A stretch of DNA of 64,000 nt from the NCBI GenBank assembly GCA_016929135.1, contig JAFGJK010000013.1, forward strand, positions 285 through 64,284, written 5' to 3'. This DNA is from Spirochaetota bacterium. Lineage in GTDB: Bacteria; Spirochaetota; UBA4802; UBA5550. Below are positions 1 to 63,980 of the stretch, piece after piece. Below the pieces are notes generated by a model. The model searched no databases. It was given only the letters and a program-made list of their open reading frames with translations, and was not told where the DNA came from. Numbering within the stretch: position 1 is the stretch's first letter; every line of letters starts with the position of its first letter. The position numbers and the translations under genes are program-made.

Positions 1-670
1 ATGCCGGCGTCGGGGTCCCTCCCTGGGAATCAAAGGATACCGTATACTGGTTTTTCGTCCATAGGGCATGGATCGTCGTGTCCCCCGACACCGTCATACT
101 TCCGAAATTCCACACGGTGCTGTAGGTACCGTCCGTAAACCAGCCGGCGAAGGTGTACCCGGTCAGGGAGGGATCGGGGGCAGGCTGCGTCGCCGTGGCG
201 CCGTAATTCACCGTCTGGGGCGACGGCACCGGGGTCCCCCCGTAGGTATTGAAGGAGACCGTGTATTGGTTGATATCCCATCGGGCGTAGAGGATCACAC
301 CGAGGGCGCCCATGGTGAGGGAATCCCCCGGTGCGTAGTCAATCCCGGTTCCGTCAGGCGCGGTGTTCCACATGGGGGTACCCAGGGTGTGCCCGGTCCT
401 GGCGAGGGAGCCGGTGTTCCCAAGGACTGTGACGCTCTGACCCTGGAGATAGATGGTCGTATCCTCCGGGGGCGTGCCGGAGGTGCTGCCGTTGCCGCTG
501 TAAGTCACCGACCTAATCTCGCTGGGCACCATATTAGTCATGTTCCCGTGGAGCACGTCGTAATAGGCGTCGCCGCAGGAGATGATGGAGAGGGTCAGAG
601 CCGCAGCACAGAGCATTACGGCAAAGAGCGGCTTATGCTTTCCGGTGTATCTGTTACTGGTAATTCTCAT
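1..670 (-). CDS. Lipoprotein with Listeria-Bacteroides (InlB B-repeat / Flg_new) repeats; 3' end runs off the window
   Basis: Absent from the ORF track because there is no stop inside the window. Reverse translation from the ATG at 670-668 gives MRITSNRYTGKHKPLFAVMLCAAALTLSIISCGD (lipobox LSIISC). It continues with units such as NQYTVSFNTYGGTPVPSPQTVNYGATATQPAPDPSLTGYTFAGWFTDGTYSTVWNFGSMTVSGDTTIHALWTKNQYTVSFDSQGGTP, which fit the YTVxF..GG...GYTFxGW...W.F...V..D.T..A.W repeat. Track ORF 68..787 (+) is its antisense shadow. Confidence 0.8.
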   Translation of the reverse strand, partial: MRITSNRYTGKHKPLFAVMLCAAALTLSIISCGDAYYDVLHGNMTNMVPSEIRSVTYSGNGSTSGTPPEDTTIYLQGQSVTVLGNTGSLARTGHTLGTPMWNTAPDGTGIDYAPGDSLTMGALGVILYARWDINQYTVSFNTYGGTPVPSPQTVNYGATATQPAPDPSLTGYTFAGWFTDGTYSTVWNFGSMTVSGDTTIHALWTKNQYTVSFDSQGGTPTPA

Positions 671-793: not shown

Positions 794-831
794 GGAACAA
801 GCTGTGCCTCTCAGGGAATGAACTGTGCGTA
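794..831 (-). promoter_or_regulatory. LytTR-type direct-repeat box A (two 9-mers, 12-nt spacer), upstream of the lipoprotein gene
   Basis: The minus strand reads tacgcACAGTTCATtccctgagaggcACAGCTTGTtcc. The 9-mers lie at 826-818 and 805-797, a 21-bp period. It matches box B (5090..5127) at 33/38 positions. A TTGACC hexamer (779-774, minus) follows 14 nt downstream, and the lipoprotein ATG lies about 124 nt downstream. Confidence 0.45.
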
Positions 832-920
832 TGGATCTTATTTTCAGGGACTGTGGGAAGTATCGTGAGGGCTCCCTGAGGGCTCTGCCCCCTTTTTATA
901 TAAATCCGAGACAATAGTGA

Positions 921-934
921 GCTTTGACCCCTCT
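921..934 (-). repeat. Left terminal inverted repeat (REP-like) of the transposase island
   Basis: gctttgacccctct is the exact reverse complement of 2009-2022. Confidence 0.8.
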
Positions 935-1000
935 TTTTTTTCATTTCTTGATAACTCAGACGTTTATACTATACAATACATTGATCAGCAGGAGGGACAC

Positions 1001-1591
1001 ATGCCAAGACCATTGCGTAATATTGCACAGGGTTTAACCCATCATACTTATAGCAGATGCCATGGTAAGAGAAATCTCCTCCAGGGAAAATATGGTAGAC
1101 TCTTTTTCATTGAAGCGGTTCGCCAATGCCAGGAAAAGTATGACTTTGCCCTTATAGCTGCTGAAATCGTTGCCAACCATATCCACCTTGTCATCAAAAC
1201 AGACCAAGGCAAACAAACGATCTCCCTTATTATGCAATACATCAAGGCAAGAATCGCGGAAAAGTACAATCGAGCCATGGGTATGACAGGAGCATTCTGG
1301 AATGAACGCTTCGGCTCCACGGTTATTGAGGAGTCAGAAAATCCGGAGGGGTATCTTCTGTGGCTTTTATGGTATATTGGATACAATCCTGTACGAAAGG
1401 GCCTGTCCCGAGATCCACGTTTGAATGATATTGGATTTATAAACTGCTACCTAAATAAAAATCATGAAGCACCAGTAAAGATCACACCACATCATTTCTT
1501 CATAAAACTTGGTGAGACATTCGAGGAGCGTATAAAAAAATTTATATTCTATGAAGATGCCTATCTCAGAAGACTGGCTGTGTATCTATGA
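1001..1591 (+). CDS. IS200-like / REP-associated tyrosine transposase (RAYT, HUH Y1 family)
   Basis: Taken from track ORF 917..1591. I prefer the ATG at 1001 (MPRPLRN), which is preceded by gcaggaggga. Motifs: HUH (IVANHIHLVIKT), FWNERFGSTVIE, and the catalytic Tyr region WYIGYNPVRKGL. These match the Y1_Tnp/RayT pattern (H-u-H ... FWxxRFxxxxI ... YIxxNPVxxGL). Confidence 0.8.
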   Translation: MPRPLRNIAQGLTHHTYSRCHGKRNLLQGKYGRLFFIEAVRQCQEKYDFALIAAEIVANHIHLVIKTDQGKQTISLIMQYIKARIAEKYNRAMGMTGAFWNERFGSTVIEESENPEGYLLWLLWYIGYNPVRKGLSRDPRLNDIGFINCYLNKNHEAPVKITPHHFFIKLGETFEERIKKFIFYEDAYLRRLAVYL

Positions 1592-2008
1592 TAAGCAGGG
1601 TCGGAGCTCAGTAATCCCTCTCAATCGTGGACTTTAAGACTCGAATATATTGTAATCCATAATAACTAATCCATTTATAGTAGACTTTAATATAGAAAGC
1701 AGTATGATCCAAACATCCACTTCGATATCCGCGTTATCCCAACCACATCCTCTGAATGGTTGATTGCATCCTTGATCACCATGTTTTTTTGTAATACTTC
1801 CTTCGCTAAACTAGCAATTCATCCTATACTTCCGTTTTGCAGTTTAATTACAGCATAGAGTTCAACTATAAGCTGGGCTCCAGGGCTCTGTCCCCGAACT
1901 CCATCCTTATAAATGCATAAATCGGGGTCAAAGCCTATATTGAATTGAAGGTTTGCTCCCCCCAATACCCCATAATTTGCTATGACCCCAGTTCTGTTCT
2001 AAAGCAAC

Positions 2009-2022
2009 AGAGGGGTCAAAGC
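2009..2022 (+). repeat. Right terminal inverted repeat (REP-like) of the transposase island
   Basis: agaggggtcaaagc is the exact reverse complement of 921-934. It ends 18 nt before the stop codon of the kinase gene at 2041. Confidence 0.8.
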
Positions 2023-2040
2023 CTTAAAGCGCCCCAAAGC

Positions 2041-4929
2041 TTATTGCATCTTTTCCCGCAGTGCCTCCAGAAAGGCCTGCCCCACCGGTAATTCGGTGCC
2101 ACCATCGCCGAGGCGTACCCGGTAACGTCCGGTGGGCTGGCGGGAGATCCCCCGGATGAAATCGATATTGACGATGTGGCTTCTGTGCACGCGGATGAAC
2201 AGGTCCGGCGGAAGGCGGTAAACGATATCCTTCATCAGGACCGGCACGTCCGTATCCCCATCAACCGTATGTATCACGGTGTGCTTCGACTGTGCCGTGA
2301 TATGGACGATCTCTCCGAACCTGATGGAGCGGGCCCTCTTCCCGATGCGGACGGTGATGCCCGCCGGGGCCGGTCTCTGTACGTTCCCGAGCTTCAGCAT
2401 CATGCCAACCCGCGCCAGAACCTCCCGCATGATGAAAGGCTTCACGATATAGTCGTTAGCCCCGGCCACGAATGCGGCGTCGATATCTGTCTTCCTGTTC
2501 TTCGCCGTAAGCATCACCACCGGGAGCTCCTTCGGGGACCGGCCGGCCCGGATCCTCCGGCACACCTCGTACCCGGACATGTCCGGCATCATGACGTCCA
2601 GGAGCACCAGATCCACCGGACCCTCCCGCTCCAGGATCTCCAGGGCTGTGACCCCGTCCGGGGCGGTCTTCACTGTGCCCCCCCCGGACTGCAGGCAGTT
2701 CCGGAGTAGGTCGAGATTCACCGGATCGTCGTCCACCACCAGGATGACCGGGGTCCCCTCGAAGAGGCCGTCATCGCCTCCGGAATGATCGGCCGAAACG
2801 GCATCATCCACCTTCCCCTGGATGACCGTTTCCCCCAGGGTAACGTCCGAGAAACCATCCGGAACGGGGAGCGTGAAGTGGAAGACCGAGCCGCCCCCCT
2901 CCCGGGGATCGACGCCGATGGTGCCGCCGTGGAGCTCCACGATCCGCCTGGCGATGGAGAGCCCCAGCCCCGTGCCGGGATAGGCCCGCGTATCACCCCC
3001 CTCTGCCTGCCGGTATGCCTCGAAGATCGTCTCCCGGTACTCCTCGGGAACGCCGATCCCGGTGTCCGATACGCGAACCTCCACCGACCCGCCGTTATCA
3101 TCACCCCCGTGCATGACCCTCGCTGACAGCTCCACCCGCCCGGCATTGGTGAACTTGACGGCGTTCCCCACCAGATTGAAGAGCACCTGCCGTATGCGCT
3201 CTTCGTCAGCCCACACCCTGGGGGTCTCCGTCCCGATGCCATTGACGATCTTCAGGGGCTTCCCCCCCGCCAGGGGGATCGACAGCCGCACCACCGATTC
3301 CCCCAGGGGATGGAGGTCAACCGGACGCAGGTTCAGGCTCAGCCCCTCCTCCTGCATCTTCGCCATGTCCAGCAGGTCGTTCACCATACCGGCAAGGCGG
3401 TGGCCGCTGGAGGAGATGAGGGAGAGATTCTCCAGGGCCTTCGGGGGGAGCCAGCCGGCGGCGCCGTCGATCATCGACTCCGACAGGCCGATCATGCCGT
3501 GGAGCGGGGTTCTGAGCTCGTGGGAGGTGCTGGCAAGAAACTGGTCCTTGAGGCGATCCAGCTTCGTGAGGGACTGGTTCTTCTCCTCCAGGTCCCGGGA
3601 GAGCTCCTCCACCCTCCCGAGGGCCCTGGCAAACCGTCGTGAGATGATCAGGGTGATGATCAGGCAGAAGAGCACTGTGCTGAAATGGATAATGTTGCCG
3701 GTATCGATGATCCACAGGGCGTACAGGATATTGTTGATCGCCCCCACCACCAGCGGTGAAAAGCCCGCAATGAATAGTACGGCGTCCTCCCGCCGGTTTC
3801 TCCAGATCCTGATAAAGACGTACAGACCGTAGAGGATGAAGAGGATGCAGAAGATGAAAAATATGCCGATTATTCTCTCGGAAGCCCTGAATCCCACGAA
3901 AAAAAGCGGCGTGATGAACACGACGGCAAGGACCTGATAGACCCGGAGCACGGCGGTGGAGAACTCCTCGGGGAAGAGCGATTTCATGGTCATGATGCAG
4001 AGGGTCATACCCAGCACCACCGTGGAATAGTCCAGCAGTAAGGGGTTCCCCGGATAGGAGAGGTCGCCGGAGAGGACCGGCGACTGCAGGTTGTAGGTGT
4101 TGACGGCAAAGACAAGGCTGAATAAGCCGATATACAGTGGCGCCTTGTTCTCGCTGCGGAAGAAATAGAGCAGTATGTTGTACATGGAGGCGAAGAGGAG
4201 CAGGCCCACGATGATCATGTCCACCGTGTGTCGACGATGTATTCGCCGCATCACCGCCGCTCCCTCTTCGATACTCGGTGCCACGCCGATGCCGCCCGAT
4301 TCGTAGTCCCGGTTCCACACCTGCAGGAGGAGCTCGTTTTCGCCCTTTTTCAGGGTGAAGAACGAGGTTCTCCTGCTGTTGATGAAGACATAGTCATCCC
4401 TGGTCCTCGGCGCTTCCTCTATCGTTCCCGCGGCGTCCGCCGGCACCCCGTTGATCCAGAGCCGGTAGGCGGAGTAGATACGGGGAAGGGTCAGGATCTG
4501 CCTCCCGGCAACCGCCCCCGCCTGTATCCGCAGTCGGTAGGTCCCCCTCCCCCTGCCGGTCAGGGGGACGCCGCCGATACCGTGCCCCTTCCACAGGCCA
4601 GGCACCGGCAGGTAGCCGCAGCCGCTCCGGGACGCGTTCCCCGCAAAGTCGGCGGGCGCCAAGATCCGGTCACGGCAGAACTCCCACTGCCCCTTAAGGT
4701 TCAGCGCACCGTCGTCTTCGAAGCTCCAGCTCCCCAGGTCCACCAGACCCTTCACCGCAGACGGGGGCTCACTCCCGGCGGCCAAGCCGCTGCTGGCGGT
4801 GCCGCTGCCGCAGGAGAATGCCAGTGCGACGACGCAGAGCAGCGCGGCTGAGAAGAGCAGTATGAGCCTTCCCACTGATCGGTTATTCATCATATTTCCG
4901 GTAGTGTCCCTCAGAACAGGCCGATACAT
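2041..4929 (-). CDS. Fused 7TMR-DISM sensor / histidine kinase / receiver / LytTR DNA-binding protein (paralogue 1)
   Basis: 962-aa track ORF; alternative starts at 4893/4890 (MMNNRS). Domains in order:
- signal/anchor LILLFSAALLCVVALAFSCG
- extracellular 7TMR-DISMED2-like region (VKGLVDLGSWSFEDDGALNLKGQWEFCRDRIL)
- about 7 TM helices
- H-box FLASTSHELRTPLHGMIGLSE
- HATPase boxes FNLVGNAVKFT, DTGIGV, GTGLGLSIARRIVELHGG
- REC (ILVVDDDPVNL, DLVLLDVMMPDMSGYEV, MLTAK)
- C-terminal LytTR (IRFGEIVHITAQSKHTVIHTVDGD, LPPDLFIRVHRSHIVNIDFI, YRVRLGDGGTELPV). Confidence 0.9.
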   Translation of the reverse strand: MYRPVLRDTTGNMMNNRSVGRLILLFSAALLCVVALAFSCGSGTASSGLAAGSEPPSAVKGLVDLGSWSFEDDGALNLKGQWEFCRDRILAPADFAGNASRSGCGYLPVPGLWKGHGIGGVPLTGRGRGTYRLRIQAGAVAGRQILTLPRIYSAYRLWINGVPADAAGTIEEAPRTRDDYVFINSRRTSFFTLKKGENELLLQVWNRDYESGGIGVAPSIEEGAAVMRRIHRRHTVDMIIVGLLLFASMYNILLYFFRSENKAPLYIGLFSLVFAVNTYNLQSPVLSGDLSYPGNPLLLDYSTVVLGMTLCIMTMKSLFPEEFSTAVLRVYQVLAVVFITPLFFVGFRASERIIGIFFIFCILFILYGLYVFIRIWRNRREDAVLFIAGFSPLVVGAINNILYALWIIDTGNIIHFSTVLFCLIITLIISRRFARALGRVEELSRDLEEKNQSLTKLDRLKDQFLASTSHELRTPLHGMIGLSESMIDGAAGWLPPKALENLSLISSSGHRLAGMVNDLLDMAKMQEEGLSLNLRPVDLHPLGESVVRLSIPLAGGKPLKIVNGIGTETPRVWADEERIRQVLFNLVGNAVKFTNAGRVELSARVMHGGDDNGGSVEVRVSDTGIGVPEEYRETIFEAYRQAEGGDTRAYPGTGLGLSIARRIVELHGGTIGVDPREGGGSVFHFTLPVPDGFSDVTLGETVIQGKVDDAVSADHSGGDDGLFEGTPVILVVDDDPVNLDLLRNCLQSGGGTVKTAPDGVTALEILEREGPVDLVLLDVMMPDMSGYEVCRRIRAGRSPKELPVVMLTAKNRKTDIDAAFVAGANDYIVKPFIMREVLARVGMMLKLGNVQRPAPAGITVRIGKRARSIRFGEIVHITAQSKHTVIHTVDGDTDVPVLMKDIVYRLPPDLFIRVHRSHIVNIDFIRGISRQPTGRYRVRLGDGGTELPVGQAFLEALREKMQ

Positions 4930-5089
4930 CTCGATAACCGATTATTACACTCTCTCCACCCAATCACCACTGCCGCTGTGTACGGGCCCCGGATGATCGC
5001 GAAACAGCCTTTCGCTGCGCATTGAGAACACAAGGATAACTGAAATCTAATAAAAAATGAGGGCTTAGTGCCGATGCGTCAGCCGGACG

Positions 5090-5127
5090 GGAATAAGCTG
5101 TGCCTGCAGGGGAATGAACTGTGCGTA
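5090..5127 (-). promoter_or_regulatory. LytTR-type direct-repeat box B, between the two fused kinase genes
   Basis: The minus strand reads tacgcACAGTTCATtcccctgcaggcACAGCTTATtcc: two 9-mers, a 12-nt spacer and a 21-bp period. It ends 4 nt from the stop codon of the upstream paralogue (5132). It lies about 160-200 nt upstream of the possible starts of the downstream paralogue. Confidence 0.45.
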
Positions 5128-5131
5128 AAAC

Positions 5132-7975
5132 TCATATTTTTTTCCGCAGCGACTCCAGGAAGGCCGGCCCCACCGGCAGCTCCGTGTCGTCGTCGTCCCT
5201 GAGGCGCACGCGGTAGCGCCCCGACAGGACATGGGACACGCTGTGGATGTAATCGGCGTTGACGATATGGCTCTTGTGGACCCGCACGAACAGGTCCGGC
5301 GGGAGCCGTTCGATGATCTCCTTCAGCATCACCGGCACCTCGATGTCCTGCTGGACCGTGTGGATTATGATCCTTTTCGAATGCGACGTGATGTAGACGA
5401 TCTCGCCGAACACGATGGAATAGGCCCTGTTCCTGTCGCGGATGGTTATACCCCGGGCGGCAGACCGCCGGACATTCCTGAGCTTCAGCATCGTGCGCAC
5501 CCGCGCCAGTAGCTCGGTGATCCGGAAGGGCTTCACGACGTAATCGTTTGCCCCGGCCGCGAAGGCGGCGTCTATGTCGGCCATCCTGTTCTTCGCCGTG
5601 AGCATGATTACCGGCAGCTCCTCCGGGGACCGCTCGGCCCGGATCCTCCGGCACACCTCGTACCCTGACATGACCGGCATCATGATATCCAGCAACACCA
5701 GGTCGATGGGGCCCTCCCGGTCGATGATCTCCAGGGCGGTAATTCCGTCGGGAGCCGCTTTCACCGTGCATCCCTTGGACTCCAGGTAATTCTGGATTAC
5801 TCTGAGGCTCACCGGGTCGTCGTCCACCGCCAGGAGGGCCGGGCTCCCGTCGAAGTTGCCGTCAGGTTCCGGCATGCCGGCGGCGGCTTCCGCGGGCCCG
5901 TCATCCAGGCTCTCGATGACGACCTCATCGGAGGCCTCAGGAGCCCGCTCGTCAGCCAGGGGGAGCGTAAAGGAGAAGACCGTACCCCCCTCTTTGCGGG
6001 GGGCCACGGCGATGGCGCCGCCGTGGAGCTCAACGATCTGTTTCGCGATTGCCAACCCCAGCCCCGTACCGCCGTAGACGCGCGTGTCCCCCCCGTCCGC
6101 CTGGCGGTAGGTCTCGAAGATCGCCTCCCGGTCCTCCTCCGGCACGCCGATCCCGGTGTCCGACACGCGCACCTCCACCGCACCGGCCGCGTCGTCCTCC
6201 TCTTCGTCACCGCCCACGACCCGCGCCGCCAGCTCCACCTGCCCCGTACTGGTGAACTTGACCGCGTTCCCCACCAGGTTGAAGAGCACCTGCCGTATCC
6301 GCTCCTCGTCGGCAAAAACCCTTGGGGTCCCCTGCCCGATGGCGTTGACGATCTCCAGGGGCTTCCCCCCCGCAAGGGGAATCGACAGCCGCACCACCGT
6401 ATCCCCCAGAATACGCAGGTCCACCGGGCGCAGATTCAGGCTCATCCCCTCCCCCTGCAGCTTCCCCATGTCCAGCAGGTCGTTCACCATGCCGGCCAGG
6501 CGGTGGCCGCTGGAGGAGATGAGGGAGAGGTTCTCTATTGCCTTCGGGGGGAGGCCCCCGGCGGCGCCGTCGATCATCGACTCCGACAGGCCGATCATCC
6601 CGTGGAGCGGCGTTCTGAGCTCGTGGGAGGTGCTGGCCAGGAACTGGTCCTTGAGCCGGTCCAGCTCCGTGAGGGAGAGGTTCTTCTCCTCCAGGTCCCG
6701 GGAGAGCTCCTCCACCTTGCCGAGGGCCCTGGAAAACCGCCGGGAGATGACCATGGTGGAGGTAAAGCAGAGCACCACCATGGCGTACTGGATGACGTTC
6801 CCGGTGTTGATGATCCACAGGGCGTAGAGTACGTTGTTTATCCCCGCGAGAAAGATGGAAACGAAGCCGACGAAAAACAGCAGGGCACCGTCTCTTCGGT
6901 TCTTTATAATCTGTACGAAGACGGACAGACCGTACATAATAAACAGGATGCAGACGATAAAATAAATCTTTATCACGATTTCCGCCGCTCTGAAGTCGAT
7001 AAAAAAAAGAAGAGTGATCAGAGCGGCGGCCGCCGCCTGGAAAAACCGGACAACTCCCATGGAAAAATCGTCCGGGAAGAGCGACTTCATGGTCATGACG
7101 ATCATTGTCATACCAAGGATGACCGTGATATAATTGATCAGGAAGGGGTTCCCGGGATAGGAGAGGCCGCCGGAGAGGATCGGCGACTGGATATTGTAGG
7201 TGTTAACTGCCCACACGATGCTCGTGAATCCGAGATACAGCGGCGACGCGTCCGTCTTCCGGGAAAAGAAGAAGAGGATGTTGTAGACGGAGGCGAAGAG
7301 CAGCAGGCCCACGACGATCATGTTGATCGAATGCCCCTGCAGGCCCCGCCGCATGACCCTCTCTCTATCGTCCAGCTGCAGGGGGCTGTCGATGCCCCCC
7401 GATTCGTACTCGCGGTTGGAGACCTGGAAGACCACCTCGTTCCTCCCCTCCTTCAGGGTGAAGGAGGGCTGCCGTATATTGTGAACGAAGATGTAATACT
7501 CCCCGGCACGGGCTGCCCCGTCCACACTCCCGATCGTATCCACCAGCGTCCCGTTGATCCAGAGCCGGTAGGCCGAATAGATCCGGTGTATGCCGAGGGT
7601 TGCAGCCTTTGCAGTGCCGTCGCTCAACAGTGTCAGCCGGTACGTGGCCCGACCCCTTCCGGGGAAACCGGCGCCGCCGGATTTCCGTTCCGTCCATAGT
7701 CCCGGGACCTCCATGTACCCGCAGCCCCCCCGTCCGGCCCCCTTCGCAAAATCCGCGGGCTCCAGCAGGCGGTCCCAGCAGAATTCCCACTCCCCGTCCA
7801 GGTTCACCGACCCGTCCCGTTCGAAGCTCCAGCCCTTGAGGTCCAGGACGCCCCTGACGGCAACGGGCCGCCGATCCGAGGAGCCGCGGTTGCATGCCGT
7901 CAATGCCGGAACGCACAGGCAGACTGCCATGGACAGCGCGGCGATGGTTCCATATGCCTTGCGGGACGCTCTCAT
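5132..7975 (-). CDS. Fused 7TMR-DISM sensor / histidine kinase / receiver / LytTR DNA-binding protein (paralogue 2)
   Basis: Track ORF 5132..8122. I prefer the ATG at 7975 (MRASRKAYGTIAALSMAVCLCVPALTAC, signal/lipobox-like); the upstream extension merely translates repeat box C. The domain order matches paralogue 1:
- VRGVLDLKGWSFERDGSVNLDGEWEFCWDRLL
- 7 TM helices
- FLASTSHELRTPLHGMIGLSE
- GTGLGLAIAKQIVELHGG
- LLAVDDDPVSL, DLVLLDIMMPVMSGYEV
- LytTR (IVFGEIVYITSHSKRIIIHTVQQD, LPPDLFVRVHKSHIVNADYI, YRVRLRDDDDTELPV)
The kinase core is roughly 85-90% identical to paralogue 1 by eye over about 165 aa. The sensor region is more diverged. Confidence 0.9.
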   Translation of the reverse strand: MRASRKAYGTIAALSMAVCLCVPALTACNRGSSDRRPVAVRGVLDLKGWSFERDGSVNLDGEWEFCWDRLLEPADFAKGAGRGGCGYMEVPGLWTERKSGGAGFPGRGRATYRLTLLSDGTAKAATLGIHRIYSAYRLWINGTLVDTIGSVDGAARAGEYYIFVHNIRQPSFTLKEGRNEVVFQVSNREYESGGIDSPLQLDDRERVMRRGLQGHSINMIVVGLLLFASVYNILFFFSRKTDASPLYLGFTSIVWAVNTYNIQSPILSGGLSYPGNPFLINYITVILGMTMIVMTMKSLFPDDFSMGVVRFFQAAAAALITLLFFIDFRAAEIVIKIYFIVCILFIMYGLSVFVQIIKNRRDGALLFFVGFVSIFLAGINNVLYALWIINTGNVIQYAMVVLCFTSTMVISRRFSRALGKVEELSRDLEEKNLSLTELDRLKDQFLASTSHELRTPLHGMIGLSESMIDGAAGGLPPKAIENLSLISSSGHRLAGMVNDLLDMGKLQGEGMSLNLRPVDLRILGDTVVRLSIPLAGGKPLEIVNAIGQGTPRVFADEERIRQVLFNLVGNAVKFTSTGQVELAARVVGGDEEEDDAAGAVEVRVSDTGIGVPEEDREAIFETYRQADGGDTRVYGGTGLGLAIAKQIVELHGGAIAVAPRKEGGTVFSFTLPLADERAPEASDEVVIESLDDGPAEAAAGMPEPDGNFDGSPALLAVDDDPVSLRVIQNYLESKGCTVKAAPDGITALEIIDREGPIDLVLLDIMMPVMSGYEVCRRIRAERSPEELPVIMLTAKNRMADIDAAFAAGANDYVVKPFRITELLARVRTMLKLRNVRRSAARGITIRDRNRAYSIVFGEIVYITSHSKRIIIHTVQQDIEVPVMLKEIIERLPPDLFVRVHKSHIVNADYIHSVSHVLSGRYRVRLRDDDDTELPVGPAFLESLRKKI

Positions 7976-8087
7976 AACAGCATTATTAATACTGCAGACC
8001 GGGCGAATTAGAAAGTGACATAATTGGATATTGCATCCATAATTCTGCAGAATGCAAGCACTAATTTCCCGTGAAGACGATATAGCC

Positions 8088-8125
8088 GGCGCACAGTTCA
8101 TTCCCTTCGACGCACAGTTCATTCC
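8088..8125 (+). promoter_or_regulatory. LytTR-type direct-repeat box C in the divergent region between paralogue 2 and the cyclase operon
   Basis: The plus strand reads ggcgcACAGTTCATtcccttcgacgcACAGTTCATtcc, with identical 9-mers at 8093-8101 and 8114-8122 and a 12-nt spacer. The ACAGTT reading direction points to the plus-strand promoter at 8154. A third consensus-fitting 9-mer, ACAGTTGAT (8157-8165), overlaps that promoter's -35/spacer. Confidence 0.5.
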
Positions 8126-8153
8126 GGAGAAGGCATATTTTAGTCGAACTCTG

Positions 8154-8182
8154 TTGACAGTTGATTAATCGAATTCTAATAT
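8154..8182 (+). promoter_or_regulatory. Sigma70-type promoter for the cyclase operon
   Basis: TTGACA (8154-8159), a 17-nt spacer (gttgattaatcgaattc), then TAATAT (8177-8182). Confidence 0.5.
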
Positions 8183-8422
8183 ACAGATGATACATACACC
8201 GATGCATCGATGTAACAGCATCCCGCTCCGTGTATTCGGTCGGGAAGGATTTGTGGAATACGATATCATTCACTACAGGATACCCATATCAATTCACCAG
8301 TCAAACATCTGATCGGAGAGAAGATAGGCGGTATCCGCATCTTCCCCATAGCCACGAAGATCGTCCTCATCTTCGTCTTTTTCATTCTGCTGTCAAACTT
8401 CACGTCCCACTACATCAGCCTC

Positions 8423-9997
8423 ATGCTCTACCGTGGCGAGATGATCATGATGATGAAGCAGCACCTGGTGAAGGACCTGAGGGACATCTACACCTTCGCC
8501 AAGACCCAGCACGAGATATCCCTCTCCGGGGGGACCCCGCAGGCCTGCCTCAAGGCGATCGAGGAGAAGTCCATGCTGGAATTCAAGAACAGGAATTCGC
8601 TCCTCCTGGGAATCCGGCAGGACGGGAGCATCCTCTTCCAGTCGTCTCGGGGCAAGCGCTTGGATGCCTTCCCGGACAGGGACGCCATGGACCTCTTCAA
8701 CAAAAACTTCAGGAAAAACGTCAAGGAGGGCTTCACCACCTTCACGCTCGAGGGGAAGCAGTTTTTCGGCGTCTACAAGTACAACATGGACTGGAACGCC
8801 TACTTCCTGCGTGCCGAGGAGTTCAACGAGTTCTACGCGCGCTCCAGGGTGATTTTCACCACCATATCCCTGGTGATCGGCGTCATCACGCTCCTCTGCG
8901 CGGTGGCCGGCGTCCTCATCCTCAGGCACGTGCTCAAATACATCGGGCAGATGACCCAGGCCATCATCGCCATGACCAGGGACAAGCAGATGGGCATCCT
9001 GGACCTCAAGGACGCACAGACCGATGACGTGACCTTCCTGGGCATGTCCTTCAACTCCCTGTCCAACACCATCAGCAATCTGCTGCAGATATTCCAGAAG
9101 TTCACCAACAGGGACATCGTGGTGAAGGCCTACGAGGAGCGCGAGATACGCCTCGAGGGGGCCAAGCACGAGCTTACCTGCCTCTTTTCGGACATCAAGA
9201 GCTTCACCAACATGACCGAGGTGCTGGGGACCGAGATCATCACCCTCCTGAACCTCCACTACACGCAGGTGATCAACATCATCCTGGGGCACGACGGGAT
9301 CATCGGCTCGATCATCGGCGACGCCCTCCTGGCGGTGTACGGCGTCTTCCCCGGCGATTCCGCGCGGCAGAAGTCCTACCAGGCGGTGATCACCGGGTAC
9401 CAGATCCACGATGTGGCAAGGCAGATCCGGAGCCAGATGATCGAGATGAGGGAGCGGATTATCGCTGAGAAGGGATCGCTCACCCCCGAGGAGGAGAGGG
9501 TCTACGAGGCGGTGCTGATCGACGTGGGCGTGGGGATCGACGGCGGCATGGTCTTCTACGGCAACATCGGAAGCCACGAGCGAATGACCAACACCGTCAT
9601 CGGCGACAACGTCAACTCCGCGTCGCGGCTCGAGGGCCTCAACCGGATCTACAAGATACCGGTGATCTGCTCTGAATACATCAAGCTGGACATCGAGAGG
9701 AACGTTCCCGAGACGAAGCTGAAATTCACCGAGATCGACACGGTCCGCGTAAAGGGGAAGACCGAGGGGAAGAAGATATACTGGCCCATCCCGAAGGAGA
9801 ATATGACCAAGGACATGCAGCGGCAGCTCGCGATATTCAGCGAGGGGCTGGCGTGGTACTACGCGGGAAAATGGAAGAGCGCCCGCAGGTCCTTCGAGCG
9901 CTGTACCCTCCCCATGGCGGAGGTCTTCCGCACTCGGACCGCCTCCGCGGAGTGTCCGAAGAACTGGGCGGGCATCTGGGCCATGGATTCCAAGTAA
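8423..9997 (+). CDS. Membrane HAMP / class III adenylate-guanylate cyclase (true start probably upstream of 8423)
   Basis: Cyclase motifs: LTCLFSDIKSFTNMTE, IGDALLAVYG, GIDGGMVFYGNIGS, IGDNVNSASRLEG. TM helix VIFTTISLVIGVITLLCAVAGVLIL is followed by a HAMP-like linker. The frame stays open upstream to 8216 and encodes a TM helix (IFPIATKIVLIFVFFILLSNF) with no ATG/GTG/TTG; see findings. Confidence 0.85.
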   Translation: MLYRGEMIMMMKQHLVKDLRDIYTFAKTQHEISLSGGTPQACLKAIEEKSMLEFKNRNSLLLGIRQDGSILFQSSRGKRLDAFPDRDAMDLFNKNFRKNVKEGFTTFTLEGKQFFGVYKYNMDWNAYFLRAEEFNEFYARSRVIFTTISLVIGVITLLCAVAGVLILRHVLKYIGQMTQAIIAMTRDKQMGILDLKDAQTDDVTFLGMSFNSLSNTISNLLQIFQKFTNRDIVVKAYEEREIRLEGAKHELTCLFSDIKSFTNMTEVLGTEIITLLNLHYTQVINIILGHDGIIGSIIGDALLAVYGVFPGDSARQKSYQAVITGYQIHDVARQIRSQMIEMRERIIAEKGSLTPEEERVYEAVLIDVGVGIDGGMVFYGNIGSHERMTNTVIGDNVNSASRLEGLNRIYKIPVICSEYIKLDIERNVPETKLKFTEIDTVRVKGKTEGKKIYWPIPKENMTKDMQRQLAIFSEGLAWYYAGKWKSARRSFERCTLPMAEVFRTRTASAECPKNWAGIWAMDSK

Positions 9998-10000
9998 GGG

Positions 10001-11149
10001 ATGACCCGAGGGGAAGCCGGAGCAATGAACAGGAGAGGCATCGCAGGGAAGAAGAACAAGGGGCTGCCCGAGGAGATGCCCACTTCCCTCTTTCTCAAGA
10101 AGGAGATGGTGGCGGCCGCGGAGAAGGCGGTGGTCTACAATCTCGCCGAGGAGTTCAGGACCACGAGAAAGAACAGGGGTTTCAGGCTCTACCTCGCCAT
10201 ACTCCTCTTCACCCTGTTGCTCCTTGGTGGCACCTTCGGCGCCACGTCCTACATCGAGCAGCGCAACAGGAACATCGCCATCGACATCACCGACTTCGAG
10301 GACATCAACATGCAGGAGCTCCTCTATGCCCTGCGGAACGCCGGCAAGCTGCTGGACGACATGAAGAACAACATGGAGCTGATGCGGGGTCAAATGAACG
10401 CGGAGATGGAGCGGCAGCGGCGGAAGGCCCTGGAGGAGATGGCGCTCCTCAAGAAACGGCATGACCTCTCCGACGCACAGAGGGCCGAGATGATGAAGCG
10501 AATCCTGGCGGCGCGGGACAGGCGGCTCGCGCAGACCAGCGCCCATTATGAAGACAAGATACGGAACAAGGAGAAGTCCATCGATGAGATGAACGCCAGG
10601 ATGGGGGATTACAAGAGCCAGCTCAAGCAGCAGATGGACAGCTACCTGACCAAGGTGCAGAGCAGGCTGAAGGAATACCAGAGCGAAACGGCGACGGACA
10701 AGGCGAAGACCCAGGATCTGATCGTCCAGATGGGGGAGGACCAGAGGCTGAAGCGCCTGGAGGACAAGAAGGAGTACGAGAAGAGGATCGCCGAGCTCAG
10801 GGACAGGATAAAGGAATCGGAAGAGAGCCTGAAGAGCACCACCGGCAGGGCCAACGAGTACGGCTACCTGCTGGACATGTACCGCAGGGCCCTGGTGCAC
10901 TACGCCTTTTTGCGGGGCGAGCAGGGGCACGTGATATGTCCGGAGAAGGACGGGCACTTCCTGGTGGTGCTCAATCCCCTGATGGAGCTGGAGACATCCT
11001 GCAAGGGGATGGTGATCGACCGAAACGGTGAGATCATCGCCAGGGTGGCCATCAACAGGGATCAGGGGGTCACACGGGCCCGCGTGCTGAACAAGGTGTC
11101 GCGCGCCCCCATCAGACCCTTCGACATGATCATCATCCAGAAGGAGTGA
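10001..11149 (+). CDS. Membrane-anchored coiled-coil protein, function unknown
   Basis: Starts 4 nt after the cyclase stop. One TM helix (FRLYLAILLFTLLLLGGTFGA), then about 200 aa of K/E/R/Q-rich heptad-like sequence and a roughly 100-aa C-terminal globular part. I recognise no family. Alternative start at 10025 (MNRRG). Confidence 0.6.
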   Translation: MTRGEAGAMNRRGIAGKKNKGLPEEMPTSLFLKKEMVAAAEKAVVYNLAEEFRTTRKNRGFRLYLAILLFTLLLLGGTFGATSYIEQRNRNIAIDITDFEDINMQELLYALRNAGKLLDDMKNNMELMRGQMNAEMERQRRKALEEMALLKKRHDLSDAQRAEMMKRILAARDRRLAQTSAHYEDKIRNKEKSIDEMNARMGDYKSQLKQQMDSYLTKVQSRLKEYQSETATDKAKTQDLIVQMGEDQRLKRLEDKKEYEKRIAELRDRIKESEESLKSTTGRANEYGYLLDMYRRALVHYAFLRGEQGHVICPEKDGHFLVVLNPLMELETSCKGMVIDRNGEIIARVAINRDQGVTRARVLNKVSRAPIRPFDMIIIQKE

Positions 11150-11154
11150 CTGCC

Positions 11155-12357
11155 ATGAAAAAACTGTTCCCCATCGCGGTCCTGCTTCTGCTGGCGCCCC
11201 TGTACGCGGACTGGGATGATTACGGTCTCACCCTGGTCTCCACCACCCCCTCCACCATGGAGGAGGCGACGAGATTCGAGGTGAAGGACCGGCAGGACCA
11301 CACCTTCTTCGTGAATGCCAGGAACCAGCCGGAGGGGGCGGCGATGCGGAGGATTCTGAGGTACAAGGACGACATCCTCGGCTGGCATCACGCCTCCTTC
11401 AGGGAGCTCTCGTTCTATATATACGAAAAGGGGATCCACGCGGTCTGCGTCCCCTACGCCGCCACCTACCGGAAGACCAACCTGATGAACCACCTCCCCT
11501 CGGGCTTTCTCTTCTTCGAGGAGAGGGAGGGGCTCAACTTCAGGTTCCGCATCGTCGTGGGGAGCACCTCGCTGAAGCTGGACGGCGTCTACAAGGGTGA
11601 GGAGCCGCTGCTGGAGGAGGTGTACCGCTACATCAAGGGGATCCGGGAAGGGAAGATCCAGGTGGAGGACGAGCGTGTCGTCTCGGGGAGCGTCGTCTCC
11701 TTCCCCGAGGAGAAGGACAAGGGGGACAAGCGGATCTATCCCACGGGCGACTTCCCCGACATCGAGAAGGCGCAGCAGGAGGCGCGGGAGAAAGAGGAGA
11801 GGGAGCGGGAGATGGGGAAGCCTGCCTTCTACGCATCCGCACAGGCGGCGTACCTCCTCCCGGTAAATATTCTGAGCGACATCTTTATCGGCGGCTACGG
11901 ATTCCTGGCGTCGGGGGGGCTGCGGGACATCGGCATCTCCCTGCAGGACAAGACTATCTTCAAGCTGGAGATGGAGCTTTCCACCGGCTACTGGCATCTG
12001 AGCGACCGGGAGCAGCAGGGCATCAGCACCGGCTGTTCCATGAATACCGCCTACATCGTACCGATCCTGTTCACCGCCCGGGGCCGCTTCGGACTCTTCA
12101 GGGAGCTCTCCGTCGCACCGGCGGTGAGTTTCGGCTACAACTTCAACAGGCTGAACTACACAAAGACGACGCTCACCGGGATCCCCTACTGCATGTCCGT
12201 GCGCCAGTGGAACCCCTCGTTCCTGCTGGGGCTCAGGTTCGATTACCGGTTCGAGAGGTTCTTCCTCTTCGCCGGCACCGATTTCATGGCCATGTTCGAG
12301 CGGCGAATGACCATCACCTCGCTCCTCTTCAACACCGGCGGCGGCTACCGCTTCTGA
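11155..12357 (+). CDS. Secreted protein, probable outer-membrane beta-barrel
   Basis: ATG at 11155 is preceded by gaaggag. Signal peptide MKKLFPIAVLLLLAPLYA. The C-terminal half has alternating hydrophobic/aromatic strands and ends GGGYRF (terminal aromatic, typical of beta-barrel OMPs). It overlaps the end of the previous gene. Confidence 0.6.
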   Translation: MKKLFPIAVLLLLAPLYADWDDYGLTLVSTTPSTMEEATRFEVKDRQDHTFFVNARNQPEGAAMRRILRYKDDILGWHHASFRELSFYIYEKGIHAVCVPYAATYRKTNLMNHLPSGFLFFEEREGLNFRFRIVVGSTSLKLDGVYKGEEPLLEEVYRYIKGIREGKIQVEDERVVSGSVVSFPEEKDKGDKRIYPTGDFPDIEKAQQEAREKEEREREMGKPAFYASAQAAYLLPVNILSDIFIGGYGFLASGGLRDIGISLQDKTIFKLEMELSTGYWHLSDREQQGISTGCSMNTAYIVPILFTARGRFGLFRELSVAPAVSFGYNFNRLNYTKTTLTGIPYCMSVRQWNPSFLLGLRFDYRFERFFLFAGTDFMAMFERRMTITSLLFNTGGGYRF

Positions 12358-18531: not shown

Positions 18532-19398
18532 GTGATGCTGGCCCCCCTCAGGGGTTGTGCGGCGGGATACGGGTCAGCACGTCACCGGGGGGAGGGGGAA
18601 TGGCATAAAGGAATTGACACCGCCGCGGCCGATGCGAGTCCCCCTTTCTCCGGGGAGAACGCGCAATCCCCCTTTCAGATAGACCTGGCGGTGGACATAT
18701 CCCTCACCGGGATCTCTGCGGCCGCGGCACTGGCCACCTACCTCTACGGCGAGAACCTCACCAGGACGCACTACTCAATCCGCTCCAGGAGCGGCCTAAA
18801 CCGGCTGGACCGCTCCGTGATCGGCAACGACAGTGAGGGTTTCAGGATCGCCGGCGATATCGGCTCGGTGGCGGTCCCCGCCGCGGCGCTCTGCATGAGC
18901 CTGATGGAATACCCGCGATGGGGATGGAACGGTGTCGCCGAGGACTTCCTGATCGTCGGGGAAACCCTGGCGATCTCCTCCTGCCTTGAGAATATCACGG
19001 TGAACCTGTTCCCCCGGCGGCGCCCCTACATGTACGACCTGCGGCTGAAGCTGCGGAACGAACGGCGCACCGTCTGGGACACACGCTCCTTCTATTCCGG
19101 CCATGCCGCCTCACCCTTCGCCGCGACGACGGCCTTCTCCTTCATCTTCACGATGCGCCGGCCGCAGAGCCCCTGGGTGCCTCTGGTGTGGGCGGCCTCC
19201 ATGGCCGCCTCCTCCCTCGTTGCAGTCAGCAGGCCCCTGGCGGGGGAGCACTTCTAGACGGACGTCATCGCCGGCTCGGTGATCGACGCCACCCTGGGCA
19301 TCCTCGTCCCTGTCCTGCACCTGGACTCGTTCCGGGGAGCCGGGGAGGTGCGGATCGTGATCACCGGAACCGGCCTGGCCGCCTCCTGCTCCTTTTGA
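18532..19398 (+). pseudogene. PAP2-family phosphatase interrupted by an in-frame TAG (19255-19257)
   Basis: PAP2 motifs: RRRP, SFYSGHAAS, and VSRPLAGEHF-TAG-TDVIAGSVIDATLGILVPV. Compare the canonical SRxxxxxHxxxD, e.g. SRVYLGVHYPSDVLAG. The same frame continues to the TGA at 19396-19398. Confidence 0.6.
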
Positions 19399-56780: not shown

Positions 56781-57701
56781 TCATTCCGCAAGGATCACCC
56801 GGTTCTTGTTCTCCCGCTTCCCGCGATACATGGCGTCGTCGGCCCTGCGGATATTCTCGTCGATACCGGCCTCGTGCCGGTACTGGGCGACGCCGACGGT
56901 GATGGTTATCGTGAGCGCCATCCCGTCGTACCGCACCTCCGACGCCTCCACCGCCGCCCGAATCTTCTCCGCGATCACCGCCGCCCCCGGCAGGGGGGTC
57001 TCCGGGAAGACCAGCAGGAATTCCTCGCCGCCCCAGCGTGAGGCCATGTCCTCCTTCCTCATGCTCTCCGTGATGATCGCTGCGGTCTGCTTCAGTACCA
57101 GGTCGCCGCACACGTGACCGTGGGTATCGTTGATCATCTTGAAATCGTCGATATCCACCATGGCGACGGAGAGACCGGTGCCGTGGCGCAGCGACCGCGC
57201 CGTCTCCTGCTGGAGCCTGTCCAGCAGGTACCTGCGGTTGGCCAGCCCCGTGAGGGGATCGACCCTGGCCATGGTCTCCATCTGCTCCAGCGCCGAGGCG
57301 AGCCTCCTGTTCATCTCCTCCAGGCGCTCCCTGGCCTGCTTCAGCTCCAGGTGCGTCCGTACCCTGGCATGGAGCTCCTGCGGGTTGAAGGGCTTGGTGA
57401 TGTAGTCCTCGCCGCCCGCGTCGAAGCCGCGCACCACGTCGTCGGCATCGCTCCTGGCGGTGATGAAGATGACCGGGATGTCCGCGGTGAGGGGATTCCT
57501 CTTGAGCTCGATGCAGGCCTGGTAGCCGTCGATCCCCGGCATCATGACGTCCATGAGCACCAGGTCGGGGATCACCGAGGCCGCCAGCTCCAGGGCCGTC
57601 TTCCCGTCCTTGGCGACGAAGACCTCGTAGTCCCTCTTCAGCAGCTCCCCCAGGTACAGCACGTTCGTTGACTCGTCGTCGGCGATCAGTATCTTCGGCA
57701 T
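56781..57701 (-). CDS. Response regulator REC / GGDEF diguanylate cyclase
   Basis: MPKILIADDESTN, LVLMDVMMPGIDGY, a coiled linker, then GGDEF: DPLTGLANRRY, VAMVDIDDFKMINDTHGH, SRWGGEEFLLVF. It starts 3 nt after the upstream kinase's stop. Confidence 0.9.
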   Translation of the reverse strand: MPKILIADDESTNVLYLGELLKRDYEVFVAKDGKTALELAASVIPDLVLMDVMMPGIDGYQACIELKRNPLTADIPVIFITARSDADDVVRGFDAGGEDYITKPFNPQELHARVRTHLELKQARERLEEMNRRLASALEQMETMARVDPLTGLANRRYLLDRLQQETARSLRHGTGLSVAMVDIDDFKMINDTHGHVCGDLVLKQTAAIITESMRKEDMASRWGGEEFLLVFPETPLPGAAVIAEKIRAAVEASEVRYDGMALTITITVGVAQYRHEAGIDENIRRADDAMYRGKRENKNRVILAE

Positions 57702-57704
57702 GTG

Positions 57705-63980
<6,276 letters not shown>

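Follow-up and report, generated by a model that had tools for sequence, protein, structure and literature searches.

Tandem membrane-bound sensor kinases ending in LytTR domains, with a predicted direct-repeat operator beside their genes, in a Spirochaetota genome

How does a transcription regulator that is fixed in the membrane find its target DNA? Two adjacent genes of an uncultured member of the Spirochaetota belong to a protein family that offers a compact test case. They lie on the minus strand of a 64-kb stretch of a metagenome-assembled genome (contig JAFGJK010000013.1, positions 285 to 64,284; here called the window, with positions counted from its first nucleotide). The downstream paralog, gene A (MBN1531274.1; 949 amino acids, aa), occupies 2041-4890, and the upstream paralog, gene B (MBN1531275.1; 947 aa), occupies 5132-7975. 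Both were located as open reading frames (ORFs) with exact matches to NCBI proteins, which are annotated merely as "response regulator." Each product joins a sensor, a phosphotransfer core, and a LytTR DNA-binding domain, and direct repeats with a period of 21 bp lie beside the genes. Judged from these sequence features, A and B probably encode self-contained, membrane-tethered two-component regulators of adjacent promoters.

Domain layout of proteins A and B

The maximal stop-free ORF of gene A extends over 2041..4929 (minus strand, 962 aa) and that of gene B over 5132..8122 (minus strand, 996 aa); the NCBI start codons give products of 949 and 947 aa. Protein A opens with a signal peptide that ends in Cys (LAFSC) and continues with an ectodomain (~4228-4767, supported by a structural model and a fold match), a 7TMR-DISM_7TM block (3637-4227), HisKA (3349-3549), HATPase_c (2860-3207), REC (2407-2745), and LytTR (2047-2331). 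Protein B has the same order, with a signal peptide of the lipoprotein type (VPALTAC), an ectodomain (~7328-7870), 7TMR-DISM_7TM (6752-7327), HisKA (6452-6652), HATPase_c (5954-6310), REC (5495-5833), and LytTR (5138-5425). The conserved Cys at the end of both signal peptides points to a lipoprotein-type signal. Hydropathy profiles contain an N-terminal signal segment followed by six to seven more hydrophobic segments.

All five Pfam domains are over threshold in both proteins. LytTR scores 69.0 and 69.8 bits at the C terminus (cutoff, 22.6), and 7TMR-DISM_7TM (PF07695) scores 68.7 bits in A and 42.1 bits in B (cutoff, 29), with a match near full length. This layout supports the central claim of the first-pass annotation, that the 7-transmembrane (7-TM) block, HisKA/HATPase, REC, and LytTR follow the ectodomain in that order and that sensor, phosphotransfer, and LytTR output share a single membrane polypeptide. 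The kinase and receiver sit between the membrane module and LytTR, and Pfam matches neither MHYT nor HTH_18 in either protein. Both proteins lack an Hpt domain, no separate response-regulator gene lies next to A or B, and an NCBIfam scan returned sub-threshold matches alone, to the generic hybrid kinases TorS, BarA, and ArcB. The same five uninterrupted domains recur in ~68 clusters (90% identity), at 42 to 63% identity, from independent NCBI, JGI, ENA, and Logan assemblies. Together with the ORFs themselves, these clusters confirm that both genes read without a stop from the ectodomain through to LytTR, as had been noted at first pass.

Residue conservation was judged in an alignment of 26 family members. 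The phospho-accepting H457 (SHELRTPLH box), the kinase residues N572/N576, D609/G611/G613, and G639/G641/G643 (N, G1, and G2 boxes), the receiver residues D720/D721 (acidic pair), D765 (acceptor), T795, and K817, and the LytTR residues H902, S904, N908, and R922 are invariant in all of them. The C-terminal family profile can be aligned with LytTR domains of known structure (3d6w, E = 1.8e-10; AgrA 3bs1, E = 1.9e-6), and the family motif R(I/V)H(K/R)SH(I/V)(I/V)N is aligned with RCHNSFVVN of AgrA.

The sensor turns out to be different from the 7TMR-DISMED2-like domain first proposed. The ectodomains of A and B have zero Pfam matches even at E ≤ 10, so that PF07696 (DISMED2) is not matched, whereas true DISMED2 relatives score 76 to 127 bits for that family. 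Among 24 family ectodomains, 14 have weak matches to Glyco_hydro_2_N (the best at E = 1.3e-6), and the ten families returned for the 24 at E ≤ 1 do not include PF07696. The family ectodomain profile also matches the N-terminal domain of the beta-galactosidases 3dec and 3bga at ~1e-4. An AlphaFold model of approximately residues 42-228 of the 949-aa protein A, built from the family alignment (predicted local distance difference test, pLDDT, 82.5; predicted template modeling score, pTM, 0.80), was compared with known structures by Foldseek, and its best PDB matches are the N-terminal sugar-binding domains of GH2 beta-galactosidase/beta-glucuronidase (E = 2e-8; template modeling score TMq, 0.55). 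As modeled, the sensor of A and B is a GH2-N-type sugar-binding jelly-roll. The DISMED2 label was dropped, and what stands of it is a likeness as a sugar-binding beta-sandwich.

Fusions of this general kind are already catalogued, those with LytTR included, and the proteins represent no new principle. A 2023 survey of transmembrane transcription regulators (TTRs) defines "hybrid TTRs," which make up ~8% of TTRs, assigns a LytTR DNA-binding domain to 5.1% of the catalogued TTRs, and lists in its supplement many 7TMR-DISM_7TM-HisKA-HATPase_c-REC proteins ending in HTH_18 or GerE; the form ending in LytTR stands there as a table entry only (PMC10269533). With that share of TTRs (PMC10269533) and with the membrane-bound CoxC characterized (PMC11347149), the first-pass statement that LytTR regulators are normally soluble is outdated. 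The further statement that no characterized 7TMR-DISM-kinase-REC-LytTR fusion is known holds for experiments, as no experimental characterization was found in the literature; fusions of this type are not dealt with in the papers that mention "LytTR" together with "hybrid histidine kinase" or "7TMR-DISM," in a search that covered journals only partly. It does not hold for the layout, which is catalogued in the survey (PMC10269533). An exhaustive profile search that covered 1.84 billion representatives returned 15 proteins at E ≤ 1e-30, and at least seven 50%-identity representatives among its long matches combine a true DISMED2 with the same downstream layout. The named members of these DISMED2-type clusters are Spirochaetota or unclassified bacteria.

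Like hybrid TTRs and the Bacteroides hybrid two-component systems (HTCS), proteins A and B carry a periplasmic sensor, HisKA, HATPase_c, a receiver, and a DNA-binding domain on one membrane polypeptide, operate with neither Hpt nor a separate regulator, and would regulate genes that adjoin their own. The features of a hybrid TTR found in both are a TM segment, intact HisKA, HATPase_c, and Response_reg domains, and a DNA-binding domain. In characterized hybrid TTRs, by contrast, the output at the end of the protein is an AraC-type HTH_18 domain, and Reg_prop/Y_Y_Y or periplasmic-binding-protein domains serve as the sensor. Neither that output nor either of those sensors, which mark the Bacteroides-type HTCS, is found in A and B, which have a LytTR end, a GH2-N-like jelly-roll with 7 TM segments as the sensor, and a Spirochaetota host. 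Receptors of the DISMED2 type share a 7TMR-DISM_7TM block after an all-beta ectodomain, and DISMED2-7TM-HK-REC-LytTR proteins (HK, histidine kinase) exist, but the ectodomain of A and B is not PF07696 and has its nearest counterpart in the sugar-binding N-terminal domain of GH2 enzymes. Vibrio cholerae ChiS is also a hybrid sensor kinase that binds DNA from the membrane and has a glycan signal; its DNA-binding domain, however, is a cryptic helix-turn-helix variant (PMC8092284) rather than LytTR, and it lacks 7TMR-DISM. The name "ChiS" on several family members is a JGI automatic annotation and not evidence of orthology. Public records call members of this family just "response regulator" or "ChiS," an annotation that the present results correct. 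The GH2-N-like clade, its stop-codon operator, and its predicted regulon appear to be undescribed in the searched literature.

The predicted operator

The 15-mer GGAATRARCTGTGCS is found six times in the window, as three pairs with a period of exactly 21 bp. The chance expectation is 0.77 single matches, and none of 100 shuffles reaches six. A weight matrix trained solely on loci outside the window recovers exactly these three pairs and, in 50 simulated 64-kb sequences, finds none. In the orientation of the regulator gene, the half-site consensus reads CGCAC(A/C)GTT(C/T)ATTCC; in the weight matrix the distal half-site is near-invariant and the proximal one looser. The three pairs bear out the first-pass expectation of candidate cognate DNA sites next to A and B.

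Site 2 (5090-5125, minus strand; CGCACAGTTCATTCC-N6-GGCACAGCTTATTCC, period 21) begins 6 bp past the B stop codon and precedes the start codon (ATG) of A by 200 bp. Beyond it come 7 nt, CTGACG, 17 nt, and CATTTT, which by eye make a weak match to a promoter. Site 1 (794-829, minus strand; CGCACAGTTCATTCC-N6-GGCACAGCTTGTTCC, period 21) stands 123 bp ahead of the start codon (ATG) of gene X, which is described below. Site 3 (8090-8125, plus strand) consists of two perfect copies of CGCACAGTTCATTCC with a period of 21, between B and a divergent cyclase gene; a degenerate third copy (10/15) at 8132-8146 is possibly in register with it. A promoter-like TTGACA, 17 nt, TAATAT (8154-8182, plus strand; a consensus match only) faces the cyclase gene, with its TTGACA starting at 8154, 28 nt (7 + 21) past the site. 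Autoregulation of gene B through site 3 was also considered; the orientation of the site, the layout of locus L087, and the target in locus L001 (both below) favor the cyclase, though an effect on B is possible. Two lone half-site-like matches of 15.4 bits each, TGCGCCGTTCGTTCC at 19055-19069 (minus strand) and CGAAGCGTTCATTCC at 1299-1313 (minus strand, inside a transposase ORF), have no partner at 21 bp and are probably due to chance.

Related loci came from four sources: one species-representative genome (L001), exact-protein look-ups (L081-L085), a metagenome scan with a family-specific C-terminal alignment (L086-L093), and relatives with a true DISMED2 (L166-L168). A scan of a genome collection with a full-length alignment, which includes generic kinase motifs, gave one true family locus among the best 80 listed, and the metagenome scan with the C-terminal alignment gave eight among the best 80 listed; neither figure measures abundance. 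In the related loci, a 21-bp-period pair follows the stop codon of 12 histidine kinase genes. It begins 2-14 bp past the stop in L001, L081, L083b, L085a, L085b, L086, L088, L089, L091, L092, and L167, and ~70 bp past it in L083a (the first kinase of L083, to which L093 is near-identical and counted with it). In the distant, DISMED2-type L167, the layout is the same and the half-site is another (TCGCTGTTGTTCC / TCGCTCTTAATAC). The pair in L087 faces a divergent cyclase ortholog, as does site 3 in the window, and is followed by 8 nt, TTGACA, 17 nt, and TATCGT. By sequence comparison, the position of the predicted operator past the stop codon is kept across relatives down to 42% identity.

A -35-like TTGNNN stands 7-8 nt past the proximal half-site in 11 of 15 sites, a count that includes L085a and L088, read by eye where the script chose another hexamer; a -10-like hexamer follows after 17-19 nt. 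The half-site core, ACAGTTCAT, resembles the AgrA-type half-site. With AgrA, ComE, and AlgR the family shares the order REC then LytTR, the conserved motif RxH(K/R)SxxxN, and a direct-repeat pair upstream of the -35 box, in which cores of 9 bp (ACAGTTCAT in this family) are separated by 12 bp. Those regulators, however, are soluble and phosphorylated in trans by a separate kinase (AgrC, ComD), whereas in A and B REC-LytTR is covalently joined to the kinase and tethered. As published, the rule for LytTR regulators calls for two 9-bp direct repeats with a spacing of 10-13 bp, normally located ahead of the -35 box of activated promoters (PMC11347149), and the geometry of AgrA targets has been described (PMC4227749). 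The predicted sites fit this rule, with a period of 21 in all pairs and the -35 box 7-8 nt on in the 11 sites just mentioned. CoxC, an MHYT-LytTR one-component regulator, is similar in having a seven-TM sensor and a C-terminal LytTR domain that binds direct repeats beside the regulated cluster while membrane-bound (PMC11347149). It differs in lacking a kinase and a receiver, in sensing CO via MHYT and copper, and in that it represses from three repeats that overlap the -35 box (PMC11347149). No simple pattern of covariation between LytTR residues and half-site bases was extractable from ~15 sites.

Proposed action at adjacent promoters and competing explanations

In the scheme that we favor for A and B, a periplasmic ligand would alter kinase or phosphatase activity. 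Because the ectodomain fold is of a sugar-binding type, a glycan is the natural candidate for this ligand, an assignment that stays tentative within the scheme. The phosphoryl group would pass from the conserved His to the receiver Asp inside the same dimer, and the two REC-LytTR arms of the kinase dimer would then occupy the two direct-repeat half-sites 21 bp apart. The bound arms may help RNA polymerase at the adjacent -35 box, 7-8 nt downstream, so that the promoter would most likely be activated; within the scheme we lean toward activation as opposed to repression. Action while the protein is still tethered to the membrane is, in the same way, rather likely.

Since the operator stands directly past the stop codon of the regulator, the controlled gene would be the next one downstream, and the predicted targets of this kind are a surface lipoprotein, a paralogous kinase, or a membrane adenylate cyclase. 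In the window, site 1 would control the Flg_new lipoprotein gene X, and site 2 would make A itself a LytTR target, giving a B-to-A cascade; site 3 points toward the cyclase operon. An operator beside the gene of a tethered regulator would hold the target DNA near the point at which the protein is inserted. The defined operator, with its 15-bp half-site, 21-bp period, and fixed distance to the -35 box, lets the regulon be predicted in uncultured spirochetes, and the predicted regulon comprises surface repeat lipoproteins, adenylate cyclase, and the paralogous kinase.

Several observations weigh against this scheme. That the proteins bind DNA, with which sign, and under what influence of phosphorylation are all predictions from sequence. 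The base-contact residues of AgrA align incompletely, and N201 of AgrA is Lys/Arg in this family. Within the window, the gap to the -35 box is 14 nt at site 1 and 28 nt at site 3, off the 7-8-nt rule, and gene B is not preceded by a site in the usual orientation. Among the related loci, L090 is without any site. L166 has no site past the stop; only a different 21-bp-period repeat is present (TTCATTACATTT / TTCGTTACATTT; L166 2234-2266), upstream of a nearby FG-GAP gene. The copies in L168 are irregularly spaced, two GGAATGA(T/A)C ~55 bp apart, upstream of 4001 and facing a divergent FG-GAP gene. Many target promoters have a near-consensus -35 box, which is unusual for strictly activator-dependent promoters, and because of these boxes repression or fine modulation is conceivable.

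This last point leads to an explanation with reversed logic, in which the protein would be a repressor or would act in a ChiS-like manner, with receiver phosphorylation lowering DNA binding and the phosphatase state being the active one. Several targets have boxes strong enough (TTGACA, 17 nt, TATGTT or TATACT) that they might fire without an activator. HisKA carries an H-E-x-x-T motif, which is typical of bifunctional kinase/phosphatases, and a weak promoter match on the minus strand (8216-8187) would put site 3 in the 5' leader of B. A membrane-bound LytTR regulator that represses also exists in CoxC (PMC11347149). However, the half-sites stand upstream of the -35 box without overlapping it, a position that the literature links to LytTR activators; in the case of CoxC, by contrast, operator and -35 box overlap (PMC11347149). 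We regard reversed logic as unlikely, with activation by the phosphorylated protein preferred.

The membrane protein could instead be a precursor from which signal-dependent proteolysis frees a soluble REC-LytTR part that acts like AgrA. The linker between HATPase_c and REC (~37 residues) is poorly conserved (31% identity between A and B; family mean, 23%) and could be accessible to a protease, and the REC-LytTR part resembles ordinary LytTR regulators of 240-280 aa. However, the conserved neighbors of the locus include no protease gene, and hybrid two-component regulators and ChiS are reported to be active while membrane-bound (PMC10269533). Furthermore, an operator kept beside the regulator gene is what would be expected for a regulator that does not diffuse. 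These points make release by proteolysis quite improbable and favor action from the membrane.

More improbable still is an explanation in which a different, soluble LytTR regulator encoded elsewhere binds the repeats and the fused LytTR domain serves some other function or acts on other targets. In its favor, LytTR response regulators abound (25,058 representatives at E ≤ 0.001), and the genome was examined over 64 kb only, a scope that counts against the favored scheme as well. However, the window has no other LytTR gene, the repeats travel with the fused gene past its stop codon in relatives that are 42 to 63% identical and have differing neighborhoods, and the half-site shifts along with the protein in the distant L167. 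An assembly or frameshift artefact that joined a kinase gene to a response-regulator gene, which the origin of the sequence in a metagenome-assembled genome might suggest, is next to impossible and already refuted, because the ~68 independent clusters, some on contigs of 4.27 and 4.95 Mb, share the uninterrupted five-domain layout.

Tandem duplication and neighboring genes

Proteins A and B are 62% identical overall, and identity varies strongly along their length. It is 51% in the ectodomain, 59% in the 7TM block, 92.5% in HisKA, 75% in HATPase_c, 72% in REC, and 63% in LytTR. The first-pass annotation was therefore right that the sensor parts are more diverged than the core, and its estimate of 85 to 90% identity for the kinase cores applies around HisKA only and not to HATPase_c. 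The recent duplication that it proposed is not upheld: with 38% of residues differing, the duplication is better described as lineage specific and not recent. A neighbor-joining tree places A and B as sisters and does the same for P0038 and P0050, which form a tandem pair in L083; from this it follows that tandem duplication occurred independently in at least two lineages.

The likeness of the two HisKA regions has another probable cause. Third-codon-position identity between A and B at identical residues is ~0.55 over most of the gene and climbs to 0.83-0.88 over residues ~400-520, a stretch that runs from the last TM helix through the coiled coil to HisKA (gene A, ~3330-3690; gene B, 6430-6800; both minus strand). 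Because identity at synonymous sites is raised there as well, the high HisKA identity suggests gene conversion rather than a young duplication, a process that would keep the dimerization and phosphotransfer core alike. It is a matter of speculation that the converted core would permit A-B heterodimers or cross-phosphorylation. A bolder proposal, to which we give little credence, is that the post-stop operator of A and B is hard-wired: the tethered LytTR kinase would find its target without diffusing, since coupled transcription, translation, and insertion would hold the promoter at the membrane. In addition, HisKA conversion would keep the paralogs pairable, so that A-B heterodimers or a B-to-A cascade could integrate two different periplasmic glycan signals at the promoters of surface lipoproteins and of the cyclase, which would produce cyclic AMP.

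Gene X, the predicted target of site 1, is represented by its 5' part (1-670, minus strand) and continues beyond the window. It encodes a lipoprotein (lipobox LTLSIISC) that carries the Listeria-Bacteroides (Flg_new) repeat (PF09479; E = 4.7e-23), and Flg_new genes also follow the regulator in L081, L083, and L085. Between site 1 and gene A lies a 1.2-kb insert (830-2040) of low GC content (~47% versus 62%) with an IS200-like Y1 transposase ORF (917-1591, plus strand). Copies of GGGGTCAAAGCY flank the insert at 920-931 (minus strand), 1924-1935 (plus strand), and 2012-2023 (plus strand), and it looks like a repetitive extragenic palindrome (REP)-associated transposase (RAYT) unit. The insert is not part of the regulatory system; without it, site 1 would directly follow the stop codon of A, as at other loci. 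We also considered the 21-bp-period repeats as REP or transposon remnants, given that site 1 adjoins the insert, and rejected this reading because the repeats recur in loci free of inserts.

The predicted target of site 3 is a membrane adenylate/guanylate cyclase gene assigned by Pfam (8290-9997, plus strand; ATG-defined ORF, 8423-9997), which is 59% identical to its ortholog in L001, the gene that comes after the L001 site. Homology to orthologs reaches ~45 codons (to ~8290) ahead of the first ATG (8423), and this 5' extension contains no in-frame ATG, GTG, or TTG. An in-frame ATC is found at the same place in the window and in L087 (reverse strand, 1-560), 7 codons ahead of the conserved HLIGEK and after a purine-rich stretch; it may be a noncanonical start codon or a sequencing error. 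Two genes without a Pfam assignment follow the cyclase (10001-11149 and 11146-12357, plus strand; 382 and 403 aa), and 382-aa and 369-aa genes stand beside the cyclase in L081 (11841-14139, minus strand). From this arrangement, the cyclase and the two following genes look like a conserved operon. Elsewhere, the genes downstream of the regulator encode Flg_new proteins, a PD40 lipoprotein, an FG-GAP lipoprotein, a MACPF protein, or a second kinase; a further set in other loci consists of a FecR-like lipoprotein followed by fn3 and Big_2 proteins.

Toward the far end of the window, a weak profile match at 56784-57704 was considered as a second LytTR gene and rejected, as it belongs to a REC-GGDEF protein. 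This REC-GGDEF gene (56781-57701, minus strand) follows a gene for a 2091-aa hybrid kinase (57705-63980, minus strand), which opens with the same sensor module of ectodomain and 7TMR-DISM (28% identity to protein B over 416 aa; E = 1e-44) and continues with multiple PAS, GAF, HisKA, HATPase_c, two receivers, and Hpt. Judging by these domains, the same sensor module is wired in this genome to a conventional phosphorelay with a cyclic di-GMP output.

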